Assembly: GCA_963678255.2 (NCBI GenBank)
Contig: CAXXTW010000002.1
Span: 1,119,605 to 1,151,604 of the forward strand
Origin: Candidatus Cloacimonadales bacterium
GTDB taxonomy: Bacteria > Cloacimonadota > Cloacimonadia > Cloacimonadales > WRIO01
Direction of reading: 5' to 3'
DNA: 32,000 nt
Shown piece after piece: positions 23,860-31,990 of the stretch (positions are counted from its first letter, which is position 1; each line of letters opens with the position of its first letter). The notes under the pieces are model-generated. The model ran no database searches. It was not told where the DNA came from and saw nothing but the letters and a program-made list of their open reading frames with translations. The position numbers were made by a program, and so were the translations under genes.

Positions 23860-23935
<76 letters not shown>

Positions 23936-23950
23936 TTAATAACAGAGCGT

Positions 23951-24027
23951 GGCGGTGTAGCTCAGTTGGTTAGAGCGTCGGAATCATAATCCGCAGGTCC
24001 GGGGTTCAAGTCCCTGCGCCGCTACCA
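23951..24027 (+). tRNA. tRNA with anticodon CAT (elongator Met, or Ile2 if lysidinylated), CCA encoded
   Basis: 7-bp acceptor stem (two G-U pairs), D arm GCTC-AGTTGGTTA-GAGC, anticodon loop ATCATAA and T arm CGGGG-TTCAAGT-CCCTG. Met versus Ile2 identity cannot be settled by eye. Confidence 0.85.
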
Positions 24028-24052
24028 ATAAAGAATATAGTGTGATAAAAAT

Positions 24053-24076
24053 GCAACCACTCGGTTGCTTTTTTTT
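24053..24076 (+). terminator. Rho-independent terminator inside the tRNA cluster
   Basis: GCAACC-actc-GGTTGC followed by TTTTTTTT. Confidence 0.7.
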
Positions 24077-24092
24077 AATGATGAGAGATGAT

Positions 24093-24169
24093 GCGCCAGT
24101 AGCTCAGCTGGATAGAGCAGCAGCCTTCTAAGCTGCGGGTCAGGGGTTCGAATCCCTTCTGGCGTACCA
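24093..24169 (+). tRNA. tRNA-Arg (anticodon TCT), CCA encoded
   Basis: Acceptor GCGCCAG/CTGGCGT, anticodon arm GCAGC-CTTCTAA-GCTGC and T arm CAGGGGTTCGAATCCCTT. Confidence 0.9.
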
Positions 24170-24193
24170 TTTTAAAATATAATCAGTTTTCAT

Positions 24194-24269
24194 GGTGGCT
24201 GTAGTTCAATGGCAGAGCACCGGATTGTGGTTCCGGGCGTTGTGGGTTCGACCCCCATCAGCCACCCCA
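24194..24269 (+). tRNA. tRNA-His (anticodon GTG) with encoded G-1, CCA encoded
   Basis: An extra 5' G (24194) pairs with discriminator C. Anticodon arm CCGGA-TTGTGGT-TCCGG. T arm GTGGG-TTCGACC-CCCAT. Confidence 0.9.
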
Positions 24270-24280
24270 CTAATTTTTAA

Positions 24281-24308
24281 GCGAATCGAAAGATTCGCGT
24301 TTTTTTTT
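24281..24308 (+). terminator. Rho-independent terminator after tRNA-His (last core feature before the island)
   Basis: GCGAATC-gaaa-GATTCGC followed by GTTTTTTTTT. Confidence 0.8.
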
Positions 24309-24322
24309 GCTTATATTTCAAA

Positions 24323-24372
24323 TGTAATGTGACAGGTAAAACTGCAAAAAGTGACAGGTGTAATGTGACAGG
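24323..24372 (+). repeat. Cluster of TGTAATGTGACAGG / GTGACAGG direct motifs
   Basis: TGTAATGTGACAGG occurs at 24323-24336 and 24359-24372, and GTGACAGG at 24351-24358. The same 12-mer is inverted at 24476-24487 and 29365-29376. Confidence 0.85.
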
Positions 24373-24504
24373 CTAAATTGCAATTTATCTTTTCAAAGTG
24401 GAATACCGATCTAACTATCTATTTATTTGTAAGTTATGCAGACTGTAAAACCGTTTTTTCATTTGCAGTTTGAGGTGTCACATTACAATTGATCAAAATT
24501 GCAT

Positions 24505-24534
24505 TTGCAATGATCAGGATTCTAAATTTAAATT
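24505..24534 (+). promoter_or_regulatory. Putative promoter of the leader RNA, copy 1
   Basis: TTGCAA (24505-24510), 18-nt spacer, TAAATT (24529-24534). The segment is conserved in copy 2 (29396-29425, -10 TAAATA). It lies just downstream of the inverted 12-mer. Confidence 0.35.
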
Positions 24535-24540
24535 GAAAAA

Positions 24541-24793
24541 AACCATTGTTTGTAAACTGGTATCAAATCACTCGTTGCGTAAACTTCCAGTTAGCACATT
24601 CCTGCAAGCTGGCAGCTCGCTGAACGAGTTTCTTTCTCACCATAGGGGCTGGACGAGAAAGAGACAAGAATTTCGAGTCCGAGCCGAACTCGCTTCAAAA
24701 GGGCTTAACACCTCGAATTTAAATTTTATAATATCATTAGCATTTTGAATTCATTACACCTCAAAAATCGGAGAAGATTTGAGGCAATTTTTT
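24541..24793 (+). ncRNA. Candidate structured RNA or cis-leader, copy 1 (5' end approximate)
   Basis: Hand-found stems: 24542-47/24556-61, 24570-76/24623-29, 24584-90/24609-15, perfect 8 bp 24631-38/24655-62, and long-range 24672-77/24712-17. An intrinsic terminator CCTCAAA-12 nt-TTTGAGG plus T6 lies at 24759-24793. G+C is about 50% by hand count over 24569-24715, in an AT-rich context. Confidence 0.55.
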
Positions 24794-24953
24794 CTTTATT
24801 AGTAATAATATATTGCTAGATGTGTCAAGAAGACATCGATATAAAGAAAAATGGTTTTCTTTTCTTGGCAATGAAGAGAAGAGTGGTTAAAGGGAAGCTT
24901 ATCTATTTTGGACAGTCTCTAACAATGTGGCAATTCATGTGTGTAACTTTATA

Positions 24954-24981
24954 TTGACATTTTTTTTATTTTTTATATAAA
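24954..24981 (+). promoter_or_regulatory. Putative promoter of the HTH-S24 repressor gene
   Basis: TTGACA (24954-24959), 16-nt spacer, TATAAA (24976-24981), about 45 nt upstream of the start. This segment is absent from module 2. Confidence 0.45.
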
Positions 24982-25025
24982 TTGTTTTAAGTGTTCACAG
25001 AATTGAATGAGTTAAAGGAGATATA

Positions 25026-25655
25026 TTGGTCTCATATATGGAAACTTTTAGATTTAATAAAGCACTACTAGCTCGGGATATAAATGTGACGCAAGGGAAT
25101 ATCTCTGATTGGGTTAATGATAAAAAACCAAGTAAACCCTCTGTTATGGCTCTTGCTAAGATCAGAGAGGTCTATAATGTGAATATTAACTGGTTATTAA
25201 CCGGAGAAGGTGTAATGTTCTCTCCAGATTCAGATGGCCGCTTTTATAACCTAGGTGAATCTAATAAAGAAGAACTGGAAGAGATAAGTGGAAACAAAGC
25301 GGTTTATCAATATAAGAGCTCAAGTCTTGAATCCAGAACAATCGCTCTTCCTCTTTTAGGATTAATATCGGCTGATACTCCTCTTGAAATTGTTAATCCG
25401 GATTCCTGGAAATATATAAAAATCCCGAAAGCCTTCTTATGGGATAAGTATGACAATTGCTTCGTATTCAAGGTTAATGGTCAATCAATGGAGCCTACCA
25501 TCTTTCATGGTGACATCGTGGTAATCCATAAAAGAGATGACTGGTTCAATCTTACAGGAAAAGTCATTACGATCAGAACTTCCGATGGCATCACTTTAAC
25601 GAAAGTTCAATACGATGAAAACGCAGACAAATTTTTCTCATGCCCTTTAATATAA
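25026..25655 (+). CDS. XRE-type HTH plus S24 (LexA/CI-like) peptidase repressor; 3' end apparently frameshifted
   Basis: HTH region ARDINVTQGNISDWVNDKK...NINWLLTGEG. S24 catalytic Ser in VNGQSMEP and Lys in GITLTKV. AGGAG lies 5 nt before TTG 25026 (alternative ATG at 25038). The last ~28 homologous codons continue in the +1 frame at 25657-25743. Confidence 0.75.
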   Translation: MVSYMETFRFNKALLARDINVTQGNISDWVNDKKPSKPSVMALAKIREVYNVNINWLLTGEGVMFSPDSDGRFYNLGESNKEELEEISGNKAVYQYKSSSLESRTIALPLLGLISADTPLEIVNPDSWKYIKIPKAFLWDKYDNCFVFKVNGQSMEPTIFHGDIVVIHKRDDWFNLTGKVITIRTSDGITLTKVQYDENADKFFSCPLI

Positions 25656-25656
25656 T

Positions 25657-25743
25657 TTCGATATTATTGTTTTGTCAGAAGTAGAACTGATAAATGTAAA
25701 CATAATCGGCGAACTGGCTATGCAGTTTAGATTGTTTAAGTAG
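25657..25743 (+). other. Out-of-frame C-terminal tail of the S24 repressor gene
   Basis: The +1 frame reads FDIIVLSEVELINVNIIGELAMQFRLFK*. This matches the in-frame tail of the module 2 copy (YRIIVLSEEELDSVNLIGEMVMQFRMYR*). Alignment implies a 2-nt deficit near 25650-25656. Confidence 0.7.
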
Positions 25744-25753
25744 GAGATAATTA

Positions 25754-28700
25754 ATGGATATGGACTTAGTTTCAACAATTTACAATAGTTATATTCTTCC
25801 AATTATTATAAATGTTATAACCAATAAATTTTCAAACAATCTGCCTTCTACTGATAAATCATTACTTGAAAATGAAATAAGTGAGATTTATCATTCAACA
25901 ATCAGGATCTTTAACGAAAAATATAAAAATGAAAAGCATTGTGATTTTTTAGAAAAACAAGTAGTGCTTGAAGAATTGTTTAAATTTAGATATTTAGAAG
26001 GCTATATTATCGACAAGGATAAGCTACATGATACTCTTAATAATTATCAAGAGTATTTAACATTGAATGAAGAGCAAATAGAATTTTTCTTCAACTCTTT
26101 AGACATTGCATTTAAAAATAATCCTAAATTAAAAAACCTGTACATTAATGCAAATTTTCGTGAAGAGATTTTTTATATCTCAAAGGCAGTTGACAATATT
26201 CAAAACAATGTGATTAAGATCCTTCAGAAAATGGATGATAATTTCCAAGAAGGCCTCAAAGATCCGATTATTATGTTAATTAAAGATTTAAAAGTACAAA
26301 CCGCTTTAAATCTAATTCAAAATTTTGAAGATAAATATAACTCAAATCCATCAAATTTTAGTAATGATTTAGTAGGAGAAATCTTTTTACTAAAAGGGTA
26401 TTGTCAGAAGATACAATTCAATTTTTTAGAATCATATAAATCGTTCATTAATGCATATAATTATAATAAAGAAAATATAAAAATTATTAGAGAAGCTTGC
26501 TTTAGCTATTTTAAGTTAAATAATATTAAACACGAAGAGCTTATGGATATCCTTTATAATAAAAATCAATATGATCCAATCTATTGGGCAATCAAAATTA
26601 TTAAATCAAAATATGATTTTAGATTATTAAGCAAAGAATCATTTTTTTATATAATAAAAGATAAAGAATTCATAAGCTGTTGCTATTCAGAATGTTTATT
26701 TAATCAAAATTCTGATCTTGTTGAATTTGGTACAAAATTTGAAATTTATAACCATGAAGAAATCACTAAAACTGATATTAATGGAAATACTATTAATTAC
26801 TATATTTTTATTATGGATTGTTATTTATCAAAGTTGATTAAAGAGTCAAGAGAACAGAATATTGCAATATACGATATTGAGCACTCTTATCTTTATTCAC
26901 TTTTAGATAATCTAAATAGTTGCTTATTAAAAAGTGAATTAATGAACTTAGATAACTCAAAAATGATTTTCTTTTTGTTTTGGTTATTTAAATATTTTAA
27001 AGAAAATAACGAAGATAATATGCAAGTTTTATTGAATCATTTTAATGAATTAAACAATGTTGATGAACTAACAGCCGTTTTAATGACTAAAGCAATTATG
27101 AAAAGTGGCAGATTCTTAGATGGTGTAGCTTTGATAAATAAAAATGGACATTTTAATAATGAATATTTGATTTATTCTAAAAATCTATTTCACTTTCTCT
27201 CTGATAATAATCCAACAATTATATATAATTATTTTAATGAAATAACCGAAATTAATGATAACAATATACAATTTGTGCTTGATTTTGCACTTATATCTCT
27301 TCGAAAAGATATATCTATAAAAGACAATGTATTAGAAATAATTACTAAAAAGAAAATGGCAGAACTAAACAAGAAACAGCTTATCTTATTTATAAATTCA
27401 TTTTCTGAGAATGAACCTTTAAGTTTGGATAATTTAAATTCTTTAACTTCGATGTTCAATAAAGATAACCTTTATTATTACTTTGCAAATATTCTATTTA
27501 ACCATAAGATGTACTATGAATGTGTAGATTTTCTAGTAAAGAATGGATTTGAATATACTAACACTCAAGAATTTGATTTGATTATCAAATCTTTAATACA
27601 TGAGAATCAGAGATCTCGTTTATTATTAGATTATTTAATTTATTGGAGATTAAATTATGAGGGAAATGAGTATTATTTATTGAAAGAAATTGTGTTATTA
27701 TCTGTCATAGATCGTTGGGATGATGTATACGATCTCTCTAAAAATTTTATAAATAATAATAGTAATAGTCCTTATTATGATCCTATAAAATATAACTATA
27801 TTATGAGTATTGTTAACTTATCAAAAATTGAAGAAATTAAACACAATGCGAATGCAATAATAGATTTTAACTACTCAGATGAAAATCAAATTAAATATAT
27901 TGTACAACATTTATTTTTAAAAGGATTAACGAAACTCTCATTAGACTTATTATTTAAGAATGCGAATAACAAGAATAACAAAAATTGTAGAGCATATTTT
28001 TTTGCTAAACATATTGATTATATCTCTCTCTACAAAGAGTATGATATGGTAGAATTTGGTAGCAATGTTGTTTATCAAGCCAATGATAGTAAATATCAAA
28101 TGAAGATTAATAATTCTAATGATAAAATTCAAAGAGAGTTTATAGGTAAAAAGAAGGGAGATTTTGTAAAAATGAAGCTTTTATCTCAAAAAGAGTATTC
28201 TGTTGAGATAATTGCAATTTGTGACGATTATATAGCTTTATTTTATGAATTGTTAAATGAGTCTCTTGATCCTGCAAATAGCCTTGGAGTTGAGGTTATA
28301 ATATTTGATGAAAAAAATCCTGAAGAATTTAAAAATACAATATTAACAATGAGTAAAGAAAAGAGATTAAATGAAGATAATAATGAGTCTTCAATTGACC
28401 TATCAATAGATTTGTATAAAAACAAAAAAATATCTCTTTGGGAGTTAAGTTGTTTACATTTCAACGGATCTTATTTTCAAAGTCTATATTTTTTAAATAA
28501 TTATAATACTTGCATCCAGAATGAAGACATTCAAAATTTTTTTAACACACAAATATATAATAATTATTTCTTGGATTTGCCATCGTCATTTCAGCTGTAC
28601 AATATTTGTATAGAATTTAACATTAAAGTAGAAAAGTTTTTTATTTCTCATTCTGTTTTAAATTTGATTAAAAAAGAATTATACCAACTCAACGACAAAC

Positions 28701-29080
28701 TAAATGTAGAAAGTACAATTTATTCTGACGGAACAGATCTAGCATTAATACAAAATCAAAAAGATTTAGTAAAAGAATCAAGAAAAAAAATATTACAATT
28801 TGAGAGATGGCTAAAAGATAACACATTTGTTCAAACTCCTCAGGAAAAGCTTGAAATACCTCCCCAAAAGTTTAAGAAATTTAGTTTATTACATGAATAT
28901 GCAATAGATTATGTAATATTATCAAGAATTCCTAATACAGTTATCGTTACAGATGACTTTAGTTTTGGTTTTTATAAAAATCATTGTAAAAACACTATGT
29001 CATTTTTACAATACATATCTACAATAGAAATTGATAATCTCAATGACGTGGTTTCATTCATAAATGGGGGAGGGAAATAG
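25754..29080 (+). CDS. Large orphan protein (1108 aa), predicted alpha-helical/TPR-like repeats, possible C-terminal PIN-like nuclease domain
   Basis: AGGAG RBS overlaps the repressor-tail stop (TAGGAG at 25741-25746). Very AT-rich with an N/K/I/Y-biased composition. I found no Walker A motif. The C-terminal ~190 aa carry FLDLPS ... KKELYQ ... TVIVTDD, spaced like the acidic residues of a PIN fold. Confidence 0.8.
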   Translation: MDMDLVSTIYNSYILPIIINVITNKFSNNLPSTDKSLLENEISEIYHSTIRIFNEKYKNEKHCDFLEKQVVLEELFKFRYLEGYIIDKDKLHDTLNNYQEYLTLNEEQIEFFFNSLDIAFKNNPKLKNLYINANFREEIFYISKAVDNIQNNVIKILQKMDDNFQEGLKDPIIMLIKDLKVQTALNLIQNFEDKYNSNPSNFSNDLVGEIFLLKGYCQKIQFNFLESYKSFINAYNYNKENIKIIREACFSYFKLNNIKHEELMDILYNKNQYDPIYWAIKIIKSKYDFRLLSKESFFYIIKDKEFISCCYSECLFNQNSDLVEFGTKFEIYNHEEITKTDINGNTINYYIFIMDCYLSKLIKESREQNIAIYDIEHSYLYSLLDNLNSCLLKSELMNLDNSKMIFFLFWLFKYFKENNEDNMQVLLNHFNELNNVDELTAVLMTKAIMKSGRFLDGVALINKNGHFNNEYLIYSKNLFHFLSDNNPTIIYNYFNEITEINDNNIQFVLDFALISLRKDISIKDNVLEIITKKKMAELNKKQLILFINSFSENEPLSLDNLNSLTSMFNKDNLYYYFANILFNHKMYYECVDFLVKNGFEYTNTQEFDLIIKSLIHENQRSRLLLDYLIYWRLNYEGNEYYLLKEIVLLSVIDRWDDVYDLSKNFINNNSNSPYYDPIKYNYIMSIVNLSKIEEIKHNANAIIDFNYSDENQIKYIVQHLFLKGLTKLSLDLLFKNANNKNNKNCRAYFFAKHIDYISLYKEYDMVEFGSNVVYQANDSKYQMKINNSNDKIQREFIGKKKGDFVKMKLLSQKEYSVEIIAICDDYIALFYELLNESLDPANSLGVEVIIFDEKNPEEFKNTILTMSKEKRLNEDNNESSIDLSIDLYKNKKISLWELSCLHFNGSYFQSLYFLNNYNTCIQNEDIQNFFNTQIYNNYFLDLPSSFQLYNICIEFNIKVEKFFISHSVLNLIKKELYQLNDKLNVESTIYSDGTDLALIQNQKDLVKESRKKILQFERWLKDNTFVQTPQEKLEIPPQKFKKFSLLHEYAIDYVILSRIPNTVIVTDDFSFGFYKNHCKNTMSFLQYISTIEIDNLNDVVSFINGGGK

Positions 29081-29395
29081 AATCGTTTTTTCGCTTTTTC
29101 AAGCGTTTTTGCGAAAAAACGGCAGAGAAATATATGAGAGCTTATTAATGATTAATCAGAACTTTATTATTTTTAAAGAGTTACAGAATAATTGTCTGAA
29201 AAATCGACCGCAAAAACGATCTAAAATTGCAAAAAGAGTGTCACTTTTTCCAGTAAAAAGCCTTAAATAAGTGGCAAAGCTTGCAAAGTGAAAAATCGAC
29301 CTAACTTTATATAAATTATAAAGATAAAAATTCGTTTTTACGATTTTTCGCTTGCAGTTTGGGGTGTCACATTACAAATGGTATCAAAAATGCAT

Positions 29396-29425
29396 TTGCA
29401 ATGATCAGGATTCTAAATTTAAATA
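29396..29425 (+). promoter_or_regulatory. Putative promoter of the leader RNA, copy 2
   Basis: TTGCAA (29396-29401), 18-nt spacer, TAAATA (29420-29425). It is the only obvious promoter upstream of the module 2 cargo. Confidence 0.35.
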
Positions 29426-29431
29426 GAAAAA

Positions 29432-29684
29432 AACCATTGTTTGTAAAATGGTATCACATCACTCGTTGCGTAAACTTCCAGTTAGTACATTCCTGCAAGC
29501 TGGAAGCTCGCTGAACGAGTTTCTTTCTCACCATAGGGGCTGGATGAGAAAGAGACAAGAATTTCGAGTCCGAGCCGAACTCGCTCCAAAAGGGGTTAAC
29601 ACCTCGAATTTAAAATTTATAATATCATTAGCATTTTAAATTCATTACACCTCAAAAATCGGAAAAGATTTGAGGCAATTTTTT
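29432..29684 (+). ncRNA. Candidate structured RNA or cis-leader, copy 2 (5' end approximate)
   Basis: Same stems as copy 1, but three that are imperfect in copy 1 pair better here: ACCATT/AATGGT, CTTCCAG/CTGGAAG, and the 8-bp stem gains an extra A-T pair. Terminator CCTCAAA/TTTGAGG plus T6 at 29650-29684. Confidence 0.55.
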
Positions 29685-29809
29685 CTTTATTAGTAAGGAT
29701 TTATTGGTGTAGGTGTCAAGAAGACATCGATATGAAGTAAAATGGTTTACTTTTCTCGGCTATGAGCGGAAGGGTGGTTAAAGTGAAGCTTATCTATTTT
29801 GGACAGTCT

Positions 29810-30148
29810 CCGGAAATATATTGAAATCCCCAAAGCTTTTTTGCTTGACAAATACGATCATTATTTTGTATTTATGGTAAATGGAAGATCAATGGAGCCT
29901 CAGATCTCTCATGGTGACATCGTGGTTATTCAAAAAAAGATGACTGGTATAATCTTGGAGATAAAATTGTAGCAGTTCGAACTTCCGATGGCATCACTTT
30001 AAAGAAGATACAGTTTGAAGATAAGAGACGACAAATAATCTTGTCTCCACTCAATACAGAATATCGAATTATAGTCCTTTCAGAAGAAGAGCTCGATAGC
30101 GTCAATCTGATCGGTGAGATGGTAATGCAGTTTAGGATGTATAGGTGA
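29810..30148 (+). pseudogene. 5'-truncated, frameshifted remnant of an S24 (LexA/CI-like) peptidase gene
   Basis: Homologous to 25407-25743: IPKAFLLDKYDHYFVFMVNGRSMEPQISHGDIVVI... then, after a 1-nt deficit in the A7 run at 29932-29938, DDWYNLGDKIVAVRTSDGITLKKIQF...GEMVMQFRMYR*. The HTH domain and promoter are missing. Confidence 0.7.
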
Positions 30149-30855
30149 ATTATATGTGTATTGAATCAAAAACTGACGAAATTAGTTTAAGTAAAATTTA
30201 TACAGGGAAATGTAATCCAAAAAATCCAACTTGTATGGTAAAGGATGTATATGGTAAAGATTTGAAAGTACTTTTTATACTTGAATCTCCAGAAATAAAT
30301 GAAGTTATTAATGGTTGCCCTGCTTTTGGATCTGCAGGGAAAAATATATCTTCTAAGCTCACAGATTTTAAAGGAGATACAGAAAAAAAAGGTTTAGGAG
30401 AACTTATCAAAAACAAAGATCATCGAGCCAATAATTATGGAATTATTAATGTTTGCCAGCGCCCTTTACAATGTAGAGAATTATTAGAATACTTAAGGAA
30501 TAATATTAGTAGTAAACAAAATCTTAATAATAAACTAAATGGAGAGTTTAGTAAAAAAGATATTAAAAAAGATGAAGCGAAGATAATTCTTAAGGAAATC
30601 TACGATGATTTTTTAAGAAGGCTTCAGCATATTATACATTTCTCAAGTAATAATTTATTGATAATTCCATGTGGAAAATTTGCTGAATCATTTTACTTTC
30701 ATTTTTTAGAAAATTTTTCTAATAATAATAATTATAAAAAAATAGTTCAAGAAGATTGGATGAAAGGTTTTCCTCATCCATCAATGGGTCATTGGGGTAA
30801 AAACCCAAATAAAATAACTCAAATGAATAATTCAATATCTAAACATTTAAAATAG
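30145..30855 (+). CDS. Divergent uracil-DNA-glycosylase-superfamily (family-4-like fold) protein
   Basis: Motif order matches UDG family 4: FILESPEINEVINGCPAFGSAGKNISSKL (compare GEAPGxxEdxxGxPFvGxAGxxL), GIINVCQRP (compare NivKCRPP), LIIPCGKFAESF (compare ivxLGxxAa) and GFPHPS (compare HPS/HPA). GTG 30145 overlaps the S24-remnant stop (GTGA). An alternative start is ATG 30154 with AGGTGA 5 nt upstream. Confidence 0.55.
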   Translation: MNYMCIESKTDEISLSKIYTGKCNPKNPTCMVKDVYGKDLKVLFILESPEINEVINGCPAFGSAGKNISSKLTDFKGDTEKKGLGELIKNKDHRANNYGIINVCQRPLQCRELLEYLRNNISSKQNLNNKLNGEFSKKDIKKDEAKIILKEIYDDFLRRLQHIIHFSSNNLLIIPCGKFAESFYFHFLENFSNNNNYKKIVQEDWMKGFPHPSMGHWGKNPNKITQMNNSISKHLK

Positions 30856-30863
30856 TTTAACAA

Positions 30864-31772
30864 ATGTCAATTTTTGAAGATTTTAATCCAACCAATGAAA
30901 CCTACTGGCGAGCTGTAATTCTTTTTGAGAAAAATACTGCTTCGTATAAATTTGCATTAGCAAAGGCATTACTTGATTTTGCTAAAATTGAACAAACAAA
31001 TGTCTCTCTCAATGATTTGGCAATGTCCTATTTAGGGTACATATGTGAACATTTAAGATTATCAGACAGACAAGCAACAAATAGCTCAAGTACTTTGATA
31101 GATGCTTGTCGCCAATTTAATAATAATCAGATTACACATAATAATCTTATTGAGATTACTAAGCAAAATGGTTTTAGATATGTTTTTGATGCTTTTCATA
31201 ATGTTAATCAAGGAGAGTTACCTATCTCCTTTTTCAAAGTTGATAAAGGGAAAAGTATTTCACTCACAGATGATTTTCTGTCTTTAAAGGACAATAATCA
31301 ATTTTCTAATCTTCTTTTTGAAGTTGAATCCAGATGGAGATTGGTTGAGACAGCTTGGGATTTAAATATATCATACAATCTATTACAAGTTGAATATGAT
31401 AATGATGACAATATCTTAAAAATTATTGATAAAGATAAAAATAGAAGAGTAAGCATTACCTCAAGCAAAGATGCACTTAATGGGTATCAAAAAGGAAAGT
31501 GCTTTTATTGTTTTTCAGATATAGATATTGATTCAAATTCTAATAATCTTTCCGATGTTGATCATTTTTTCCCTTTTACTTTAGGACATACTAAAACTCA
31601 AAGCAATTTAGATGGTATTTGGAATTTAGTTTTTGCTTGTAAGAATTGTAATAGAGGGGATGGTGGTAAATTTGCACAACTACCTGATATAAAATATTTA
31701 GAAAGACTTCATAAAAGAAACAATTTTCTTATTGAGAGTCATCACCCTCTTAGAGAAACTCTTCTCCAATGA
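30864..31772 (+). CDS. HNH (beta-beta-alpha-Me) endonuclease with an uncharacterised N-terminal domain
   Basis: The C-terminal region CFYCFSDIDID...SDVDHFFPFTLGH...NLVFACKNCNRGDGGKF gives CxxC...DH...N...CxxCN. The N-terminal ~200 aa (YWRAVILFEKNTASYKFALAKALLDF...) are not recognised. Confidence 0.75.
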   Translation: MSIFEDFNPTNETYWRAVILFEKNTASYKFALAKALLDFAKIEQTNVSLNDLAMSYLGYICEHLRLSDRQATNSSSTLIDACRQFNNNQITHNNLIEITKQNGFRYVFDAFHNVNQGELPISFFKVDKGKSISLTDDFLSLKDNNQFSNLLFEVESRWRLVETAWDLNISYNLLQVEYDNDDNILKIIDKDKNRRVSITSSKDALNGYQKGKCFYCFSDIDIDSNSNNLSDVDHFFPFTLGHTKTQSNLDGIWNLVFACKNCNRGDGGKFAQLPDIKYLERLHKRNNFLIESHHPLRETLLQ

Positions 31773-31990
31773 CAAGGTCATCAAATGACAAAAGAGTTAT
31801 GTTTCTACAGAGACATTATAACTATGCTAAAGAAAGACTCATTTCTACATGGAAACCAAAATATGAATTATTAGAAATTATAAAAACTGAGGATGTTCGT
31901 GAAGACAAGAAAGGTGATTACTGGTTGAACATCTTTCTTAGAATATCCCCAGATCTAACGAACTGGGTTATACACATATCGCATCGCTGA
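31769..31990 (+). CDS. Small hypothetical protein (73 aa), start overlaps the HNH stop (ATGA)
   Basis: ATG 31769 overlaps TGA 31770-31772. No recognisable motif. It could be a coupled partner or a frameshifted C-terminal extension of the HNH gene. Confidence 0.4.
   Translation: MTRSSNDKRVMFLQRHYNYAKERLISTWKPKYELLEIIKTEDVREDKKGDYWLNIFLRISPDLTNWVIHISHR

Follow-up and report, generated by a model that had tools for sequence, protein, structure and literature searches.

The stretch analysed here (the window, 32,000 nucleotides (nt) from a Candidatus Cloacimonadales bacterium) holds, at positions 24505-24793 and again at 29396-29684, a non-coding, hairpin-rich sequence of about 290 bases, which we call the module. 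Each copy lies just 5' of a phage-type repressor gene of the S24 type and is co-oriented with it. The module is real as a unit, being strongly self-complementary and non-coding, and the expression signals that it carries are directional; the surroundings of both copies are a graveyard of Mu-like mobile-element remnants. Judging from the signals in the DNA, the reading that we favour, with rather less than even confidence, is that the module may be transcribed rightward, as a cis-acting promoter-plus-attenuator leader or as a terminated RNA, before an operon of repressor and cargo genes. The proposed RNA (24541-24793), which lies within the first intergenic stretch 3' of a tRNA cluster (Met, Met, Arg, His; 23860-24269), had been singled out in an initial annotation, made from the letters alone, as a candidate novel structured RNA with a promoter-like element of its own and an intrinsic terminator.

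A self-complementary, non-coding module in two copies

The module is part of a longer repeat, in which 24488-24928 recurs at 29377-29818. Over 24507-24793 the two copies are 96% identical (11 of 287 positions differ), compared with about 79% over the first 19 nt of the repeat (24488-24506), where there is also a 2-nt indel, and 84% over the repeat tail (22 of 135 positions differ, 24794-24928); conservation between the copies is thus four times better in the module than in the tail of the same repeat (Fisher p = 2e-5). Between the two copies of the proposed RNA (24541-24793 and 29432-29684) there are 10 differences, the number initially estimated. The G+C fraction is 0.51 over 24569-24715, 0.14-0.34 in the adjoining segments and 0.32 in the window, which bears out the earlier description of a core that is about half G+C inside AT-rich flanks. 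The features of the repeat and of the start of the repressor gene are as follows.

24488-24504, plus strand: start of the repeat, directly 3' of a mobile-element terminus, with the palindrome ATTGCA-TT-TGCAAT
24505-24534, plus strand: promoter-like element P1, TTGCAA-18-TAAATT, in both copies (TAAATA in copy 2), matching TTGACA/TATAAT at 8 of 12 positions
24542-24561, plus strand: hairpin H0, small and AT-rich, with U7 after it on the minus strand, where it forms a weak terminator-like site (-2.1 and -4.2 kcal/mol in the two copies)
24569-24715, plus strand: G+C-rich core (51% G+C), holding hairpins H1, H2, H3 and H4
24572-24627, plus strand: hairpin H1 of the minimum-energy fold, in the G+C-rich core
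24628-24665, plus strand: hairpin H2, likewise
24674-24692, plus strand: hairpin H3, likewise
24701-24714, plus strand: hairpin H4, likewise
24705-24732, plus strand: promoter-like element P2, near-consensus sigma-70-like TTAACA-16-TATAAT, 11 of 12 positions, within the proposed RNA and embedded in H5; at 29596-29623 in copy 2
24715-24752, plus strand: hairpin H5, an AT-rich palindrome
24759-24784, plus strand: final stem, followed by CAA and U6
24759-24793, plus strand: terminator- or attenuator-like hairpin CCUCAAAAAUC / GAUUUGAGG (-7.8 kcal/mol) with its CAA and U6; the lone substitution (24773) is in the loop
24794-24928, plus strand: repeat tail, 84% identical between the copies, with no significant fold (z 0.15 to -1.6)
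24954-24983, plus strand: promoter-like site of the repressor gene, TTGACA-18-TAAATT, 10 of 12 positions; absent from copy 2
29377-29818, plus strand: copy 2 of the repeat, with the high-identity module at 29396-29684 and the proposed RNA at 29432-29684

In agreement with the initial count of at least five stems, the minimum-energy folds hold at least five or six hairpins in addition to the terminator stem. Copy 2 folds at -73.8 kcal/mol (z -5.6), a stability reached by none of 200 shuffles, and copy 1 at -62.9 kcal/mol (z -2.5), reached by 2 of 200, so that the excess stability is exceptional for copy 2 and modest or marginal for copy 1. By the generic measure of a structured RNA, a fold more stable than composition-matched shuffles, the module thus qualifies, with the minus strand equally stable: over the full stretch the minus strand gives z-scores of -3.0 and -4.6 in the two copies, over the core the values for the plus and minus strands are -2.0 and -2.4 in copy 1 and -3.7 and -4.0 in copy 2, and core energies are lower on the minus strand. 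G-U pairs are likewise mixed with respect to strand, with H1 and H2 having U-G pairs on the plus strand and H3 having one only on the minus strand. Because the two strands fold alike in this way, the assignment of a strand depends solely on the promoter-like and terminator-like signals described below.

The 10 differences between the copies are non-random relative to the fold: at five of them (24557, 24613, 24654, 24704 and 24724) a mismatch in copy 1 is a pair in copy 2, and only 0.3% of random 10-substitution sets starting from copy 1 gain at least 10.9 kcal/mol. Three of these sites (24613, 24654 and 24704) are the stem substitutions that had already been recognized as improving the pairing of copy 2, to which 24557 and 24724 are now added. 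The accompanying claim that most substitutions fall in loops holds in the two-sequence consensus fold, where 8 of the 10 are unpaired, but not in copy 2's own fold, where 7 of the 10 are paired. The ancestor may have been strongly structured, with copy 2 still close to it and copy 1 decaying; alternatively, the pairing of copy 2 may have improved from a copy 1-like state, which would fit the AT-biased mutation expected at 32% G+C, since copy 1 has C at five sites. There is no compensatory double change within 24541-24793 (two sequences only). RNAalifold does report two compensatory pairs downstream of the terminator, in the tail (24847/24858 and 24877/24920), to which we give no weight, because 44% of random-substitution simulations yield at least two pairs of this kind and the tail is not unusually stable; an extension of the structured RNA into 24794-24928 was rejected on the same grounds.

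One could also suppose that the region encodes a small protein, given that a frame of 92 amino acids (aa) is open across it in copy 1 (24470-24748), but we regard this as extremely unlikely, and consider the region to be non-coding. As the initial annotation had pointed out, the start is unconserved, the codon at 24557 being CTG in copy 1 and ATG in copy 2, and direct reading finds no Shine-Dalgarno sequence before either start. In copy 2 the frame is moreover interrupted by an upstream stop (TTG to TAG at 24534), leaving 63 aa, and downstream of that stop the copies differ by 2 synonymous and 6 non-synonymous changes. Among 5.8 billion proteins there is no homologue, nor is the open reading frame (ORF) itself on record there. 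None of the marks of a small-protein gene (conserved start, ribosome-binding site, homologues, synonymous excess) was therefore found, and the conserved small protein with a coding substitution pattern that had been named as the result that would overturn the RNA interpretation was looked for among proteins, in Pfam and in the substitutions, and did not appear. A decayed coding remnant was rejected as well, as ten reading-frame fragments from either strand have no Pfam match even at E <= 1, and a decayed ner-like gene was rejected because tblastn with five ner-like proteins gave no match.

The failure to recognize a known RNA family was borne out by Rfam 15, which at gathering threshold reports only four tRNAs in the window; at E <= 10, the region 24270-25030 gives only chance-level matches, all far below gathering scores. 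Blastn of the module against phage and plasmid records gave no match. Viral contigs gave none either, in three scans for exact core patterns and in one for the element-end motif described below, nor did one pattern scan of metagenome contigs with a 22-mer from H2. Blastn and a covariance model likewise find no module in other loci at the same tRNA-His site (L002, L022, L026 and L027; the prefix L marks loci collected for comparison). To go by its occurrence, the module has probably multiplied or spread recently within the source genome.

Directional signals and a possible leader

The TTGCAA-18-TAAATT element that had been put forward as conserved is indeed present in both copies, but with 8 of 12 consensus positions (counted by hand) it falls below the cut-off of 9 of 12 in our scan for TTGACA/TATAAT, and is not listed by it. 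It is nevertheless not implausible as a promoter, since the repressor gene's own promoter-like site has the same -10 hexamer, TAAATT. P2, in turn, is the best promoter-like site that the consensus scan finds in the whole region; a transcript from it would be expected to start near 24740, with the hairpin about 20 nt further on. As to the intrinsic terminator, initially called clear, a hairpin followed by U6 is there in both copies, but with 9 pairs, a 2-nt bulge, a 6-nt loop and -7.8 kcal/mol it is of moderate strength, and it fails the criteria of the consensus scan, which does not list it. P1, P2 and the hairpin with U6 are all kept in both copies and all on the plus strand, and the sole minus-strand promoter-like site in the scan (24933-24905) has no counterpart at the corresponding place in copy 2. 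Read from the sequence, ACACCUCGAAUU (24708-24719) could substitute for the 5' arm of the terminator, giving an alternative pairing.

If the module is transcribed rightward, transcription from the weak P1 would cover H0 to H5 and end at the hairpin with U6, giving a structured RNA some 250 nt long, while the short leader from the near-consensus internal P2 would reach this hairpin after about 20 nt. The hairpin would then terminate transcription, and by way of P1, P2 or both the unit might set, in cis, the transcription that enters the repressor and cargo genes. In copy 2, where the repressor promoter and the helix-turn-helix (HTH) half of the repressor have been deleted, the module holds the best promoter-like site 5' of the cargo genes (a 236-aa ORF and an HNH protein).

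The initial annotation is weakened by a promoter, P1, that matches the consensus poorly, and by a better promoter-like match within the RNA that it proposed. Several observations weigh against the leader itself. In copy 1 the repressor gene has a promoter of its own 3' of the hairpin, so that the leader is not needed (by eye, a comparable TTGACA...TATAAT is readable 5' of the repressor homologues in L002 and L026). Both strands fold about equally, and for the core the minus strand even has a slight advantage. When the random substitutions start from copy 2, 30% of the simulations lose 10.9 kcal/mol; such a loss is thus typical of random mutation, which means that copy 1 may simply be decaying, and the high identity between the copies could reflect recent duplication or gene conversion instead of selection. 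Finally, blastn and a covariance model of the 147-nt core (R1, built from the two window copies) find, across 40 related loci, only the two copies in the window; the module is absent from cassettes with repressors of 55-77% identity (L001, L002, L009, L018 and L026-L040), and is thus not an ancestral or required part of the system.

The same layout of promoter-like element, structured body and hairpin with U-tract would also suit a discrete trans-acting small RNA of about 250 nt, transcribed from P1 to the terminator on a mobile-element remnant and regulating mRNAs of the host or the element, or binding a protein. The separate promoter of the downstream gene suits such a free-standing gene, and structured RNAs of AT-rich genomes typically show such a G+C contrast. 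We nevertheless hold it to be quite unlikely: P1 matches at 8 of 12 positions only while the stronger site lies within the RNA, the strand is ambiguous, there is neither a family match nor a homologue in the searches, and complementarity to the module within the 32-kb window stays at the level expected from shuffles. The lack of an above-chance antisense target in the window modestly favours a cis over a trans role.

Mu-like element ends, damaged repressors and unrelated cargo

The features around the two copies are listed here, where LE and RE are our labels for the distal and the repressor-proximal type of element end.

24195-24269, plus strand: tRNA-His (ARAGORN and Rfam), last gene of the Met-Met-Arg-His cluster; the island starts 53 nt later
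24323-24358, plus strand: fragment of a distal-type Mu-like end, LE var2, 36 nt, with terminus TGTAATGTGACA at 24323; it matches the initial 36 nt of this end in L010, L011 and L020, and in all loci conservation breaks off exactly at the terminus
24359-24487, without strand: 129-bp miniature element with inverted termini TGTAATGTGACAGG... and ...GGTGTCACATTACA (RE-A)
25026-25655, plus strand: Mu-type c repressor with XRE HTH and S24 peptidase domains (Pfam), 209 aa
25754-29080, plus strand: cargo protein of 1108 aa, distant member of the TPR-GreAB-C-PIN family (about 25% identity), with a weak match to the GreA C-terminus
29087-29376, plus strand: c-proximal Mu-like end RE-B, with TTGCA-N-GTGTCAC repeats and terminus ...TGTCACATTACA at 29376
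29812-30147, plus strand: remnant of a second c-type repressor; S24 half only, with a frameshift and no HTH or promoter

Both copies of the repeat start at the base directly after ...TTGCAGTTTGRGGTGTCACATTACA, that is, at the outer terminus ...TGTCACATTACA of a Mu-like end. A metagenome scan with TTGCAGTTTGRGGTGTCACATTACA found 20 loci, and in all of them conservation reaches ...TGTCACATTACA and then stops, with unrelated flanks, which marks them as the termini of a mobile-element family. The element ends read 5'-TGTAATGTGACA...TGTCACATTACA-3' and have sub-terminal GTGACA-N-TGCAA repeats. The ends that touch the module are two different variants, RE-A and RE-B, each found independently in other metagenomes: copies of the 129-bp element, 83-91% identical and each with different flanks, occur in L001, L006, L012-L015, L019 and L023, and an RE-B-type end also lies 3' of the 66% identical cargo homologue in L005 and 3' of the c gene in L034-L036. 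The LE var2 fragment starts 53 nt after tRNA-His. RE-A and RE-B share identical 25-nt termini, and the simplest route to copy 2 would be an unequal recombination within these termini, followed by a deletion that fused it to another repressor gene.

The same events could have carried a sequence without function, and one could speculate that the module is a foreign or decayed structured sequence that was trapped by a Mu-like end and duplicated by the unequal recombination, copy 2 being joined by a later deletion to the middle of another repressor gene and the signals being incidental in AT-rich DNA. This would account simply, through recombination in shared termini, for copies that start exactly at a terminus yet abut two end variants; the module is found nowhere else in the searches, both neighbouring repressor genes are damaged, the differences of copy 1 resemble a neutral loss of pairing, and promoter-like sites are common in the scanned region (7 found against 3.8 expected). 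It is not easily reconciled, on the other hand, with a z-score of -5.6, very unusual for an arbitrary sequence, with the fourfold better conservation of the module relative to its own tail, or with an 11 of 12 promoter match and a hairpin with U6 kept in both copies; the mutational bias at 32% G+C, furthermore, suggests that the five C of copy 1 are ancestral and that the pairing of copy 2 has improved. On balance we think this explanation unlikely, if still one to be taken seriously.

The junctions also bear on whether the module acts as DNA, as operators around P1 and P2, as a preferred landing site for Mu-like elements or as a module for recombination between cassettes. The junction with the unit falls at the same position, to within 2 nt, for two different element ends. 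The two strands are alike in folding, and strand-specific G-U pairs are mixed among the helices. A palindromic motif, AATTTAAATT, lies at the -10 element of P1 and recurs within P2, whose own -10 element is surrounded by the 11-bp inverted repeat of H5, which both H5 substitutions make perfect in copy 2. Yet about 14 other contexts of these element ends have no flanking sequence in common, so that insertion is not generally site-specific, and inspection of the sequence revealed no target-site duplication around any candidate element. Three separate G+C-rich hairpins of 19-56 nt would be atypical of operators, and the directional hairpin with U6 is a feature of the RNA level, for which reasons we judge a DNA-level role to be improbable.

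Far bolder, and in our view very improbable, is the proposal of a new class of structured RNA on Cloacimonadota Mu-like prophage remnants, which would either gate repressor-linked anti-phage cargo or mark a preferred landing site. In its gating form the Gre-like domain of the TPR-GreAB-C-PIN cargo protein would suggest contact with RNA polymerase, the RNA being a polymerase-directed leader; the landing-site form would account for the two different ends that abut the module at the same base.

Other origins of the module were tried and rejected. An insertion with a 5-bp duplication into a repressor promoter of the L002/L026 type aligns no better than shuffles, and no inverted termini of its own were found that would make it a miniature transposon.

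Both repressor genes in the window are damaged. The one after copy 1 is about 40 aa short at its C-terminus relative to homologues of 239-253 aa, and the copy 2 repeat is fused directly to the S24 half of the second; the S24 coding parts of the two are 71-76% identical in nucleotides. In L034 and L038 an XRE-S24 homologue is divergent from a gene for a 76-aa ner-like protein and one for a 675-aa protein with a Mu transposase C-terminal domain (L034 also has a TniB-like ATPase and a DUF3164 gene), and Mu-like relatives end about 350 nt 3' of the repressor gene in ...GGGTGTCAACTTACA. From these neighbours we take the XRE-S24 genes to be Mu-type c repressors and RE to be the repressor-proximal end. 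Full-length relatives have a conserved operator region and a ner-like gene 5' of c, of which the module shows no trace. Tn7-like ends had been favoured first, and were dropped for Mu-like ones after MuA-type genes were found beside the homologous repressors.

The interval from the c gene to the terminus carries varied, mostly defence-type cargo (L034 1-4762, L038 1-4128, L018 128-7797, window 25026-29376), including GmrSD in L001, a reverse transcriptase in L009, UDG, winged HTH and radical-SAM proteins in L018 and a DUF2321/DpnII-like protein in L026. An exhaustive HMMER search relates the 1108-aa protein of the window to proteins with a PIN-TPR-GreABC domain (PF20698), which are about 1240 aa long and about 25% identical to it. 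The 1108-aa protein has no direct match in Pfam, PADLOC or the PDB (PADLOC has no model for these relatives either), and among 5.8 billion proteins it has a single close relative, 66% identical. The cargo after copy 2 is unrelated to it, consisting of the 236-aa and HNH proteins. The 236-aa ORF, for which Pfam, PADLOC and NCBIfam give no match, is followed in this part of the window (30145-31990) by a 302-aa HNH protein, whose matches are weak and PtuB-like, and by the first part of a third, overlapping ORF; together they may be an unclassified defence operon.

Several further observations concern the element family as such. It comprises at least two variants per end type (window 24323-24487 and 29087-29376; L001, L006-L025), and miniature derivatives of 129-325 bp with 83-91% identity are found in many metagenome contigs from anaerobic digesters and activated sludge. 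Distal-type ends lie 53 nt after tRNA-His in the window (24269-24323) and 60, 167 and 254 nt after tmRNA genes in other loci (L008 11438-11499, L021 1460-1628 and L010 580-835, respectively), and truncated repressor-cargo units lie directly 3' of tRNA genes in L001, L002, L022, L026 and L027; Mu-like elements that insert at random would not be expected to cluster at tRNA and tmRNA genes in this way. In two overlapping contigs from the same metagenome (L018 1-152 and L020 12672-12783) an 89-nt spacer separates a repressor-proximal end from a distal end that faces it, reflecting either tandem elements or assembly across a population of insertions, and in L007 the two end types directly abut. L015 (5749-8062) has an IS21-type pair, IstA with a Mu-transposase C-terminal domain and IstB, beside a miniature element; with TGTCCGAAATTTTTCAGA repeats of its own, different from the ends described here, this transposase is unrelated to the element family and was rejected as the one mobilizing it.

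Relation to known systems

In the order of its parts the module resembles attenuator- and riboswitch-type leaders, with a promoter-like site, a structured core of about 150 nt, a hairpin with U-tract and a co-oriented gene, and the substitution of ACACCUCGAAUU for the 5' arm of the terminator would likewise allow alternative pairing. It differs from such leaders in that the start codon is about 230 nt past the hairpin, a separate promoter intervenes in copy 1 and no known aptamer in Rfam matches; nor does conservation across genomes speak for an aptamer, the module being known from two copies in one genome.

IscB/TnpB omega-RNAs (HEARO) are also structured, relatively G+C-rich and about 150-250 nt long, and start at a mobile-element boundary, as the module does. 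In contrast to them, it has no match to HEARO or any other Rfam family even at E <= 10, it is accompanied by no IscB, TnpB or RuvC gene, the adjoining ends are those of Mu-like DDE elements, not of IS200/IS605, and the cargo proteins beside its two copies are unrelated to each other; membership was rejected for the missing nuclease gene, the missing Rfam match and the Mu-like ends. A retron msr-msd RNA was rejected too, as no reverse transcriptase domain occurs in the scanned island ORFs; a candidate closing helix of the retron type (24563-24569 with 24776-24782) is broken in copy 2. The earlier suggestion of a guide-like or antitoxin RNA of the island has thereby become unlikely, as has a retron-type partnership, given the unrelated cargo after the two copies, the absence of a reverse transcriptase, IscB or TnpB gene, and related cassettes and homologous cargo contexts that lack the module (in L005, the only close cargo homologue, the 5' side lies outside the visible sequence).

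Correia-type elements are transcribed, hairpin-forming intergenic repeats or miniature elements. The module is similarly a short non-coding repeat, probably multiplied recently in one genome, which places promoter- and terminator-like sequences before genes; it differs from them in having neither terminal inverted repeats nor a target-site duplication, and in being visible in only two copies.

The immunity regions of temperate phages and satellites offer a further comparison, with the CI RNA of P4 and the C4 RNA of P1 and P7. As in these, a non-coding RNA candidate lies beside a temperate mobile element's repressor or immunity gene, whereas the module has no relationship to them in sequence or structure, no complementary target was found in the window, and full-length Mu-like relatives have a ner-like gene at the position of the module.

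As a single-genome, two-copy orphan that does not yet generalize, the module is currently of low general importance. The context is more informative, in that the XRE-S24 cassettes beside tRNA and tmRNA genes of Cloacimonadota are the repressor-proximal ends of Mu-like elements, in which the stretch from the repressor gene to the terminus carries varied defence genes. It is this context, and not the module, that has the properties of Mu-like elements, with 5'-TG...CA-3' termini, sub-terminal repeats, a c gene near and directed toward one end, and a divergent MuA-type transposase with, in L034, an ATPase; the window itself holds element remnants only, with no transposase. If transcribed and functional, the module would be an unclassified structured RNA controlling entry into a repressor-plus-defence operon on transposable-prophage remnants of an uncultured phylum, and, if this is true, a small addition to the catalogue of regulatory RNAs of phages and defence systems. 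If transcribed, it would thus belong, although unclassified, to a familiar kind of RNA, the leaders and small RNAs of prophage immunity regions.

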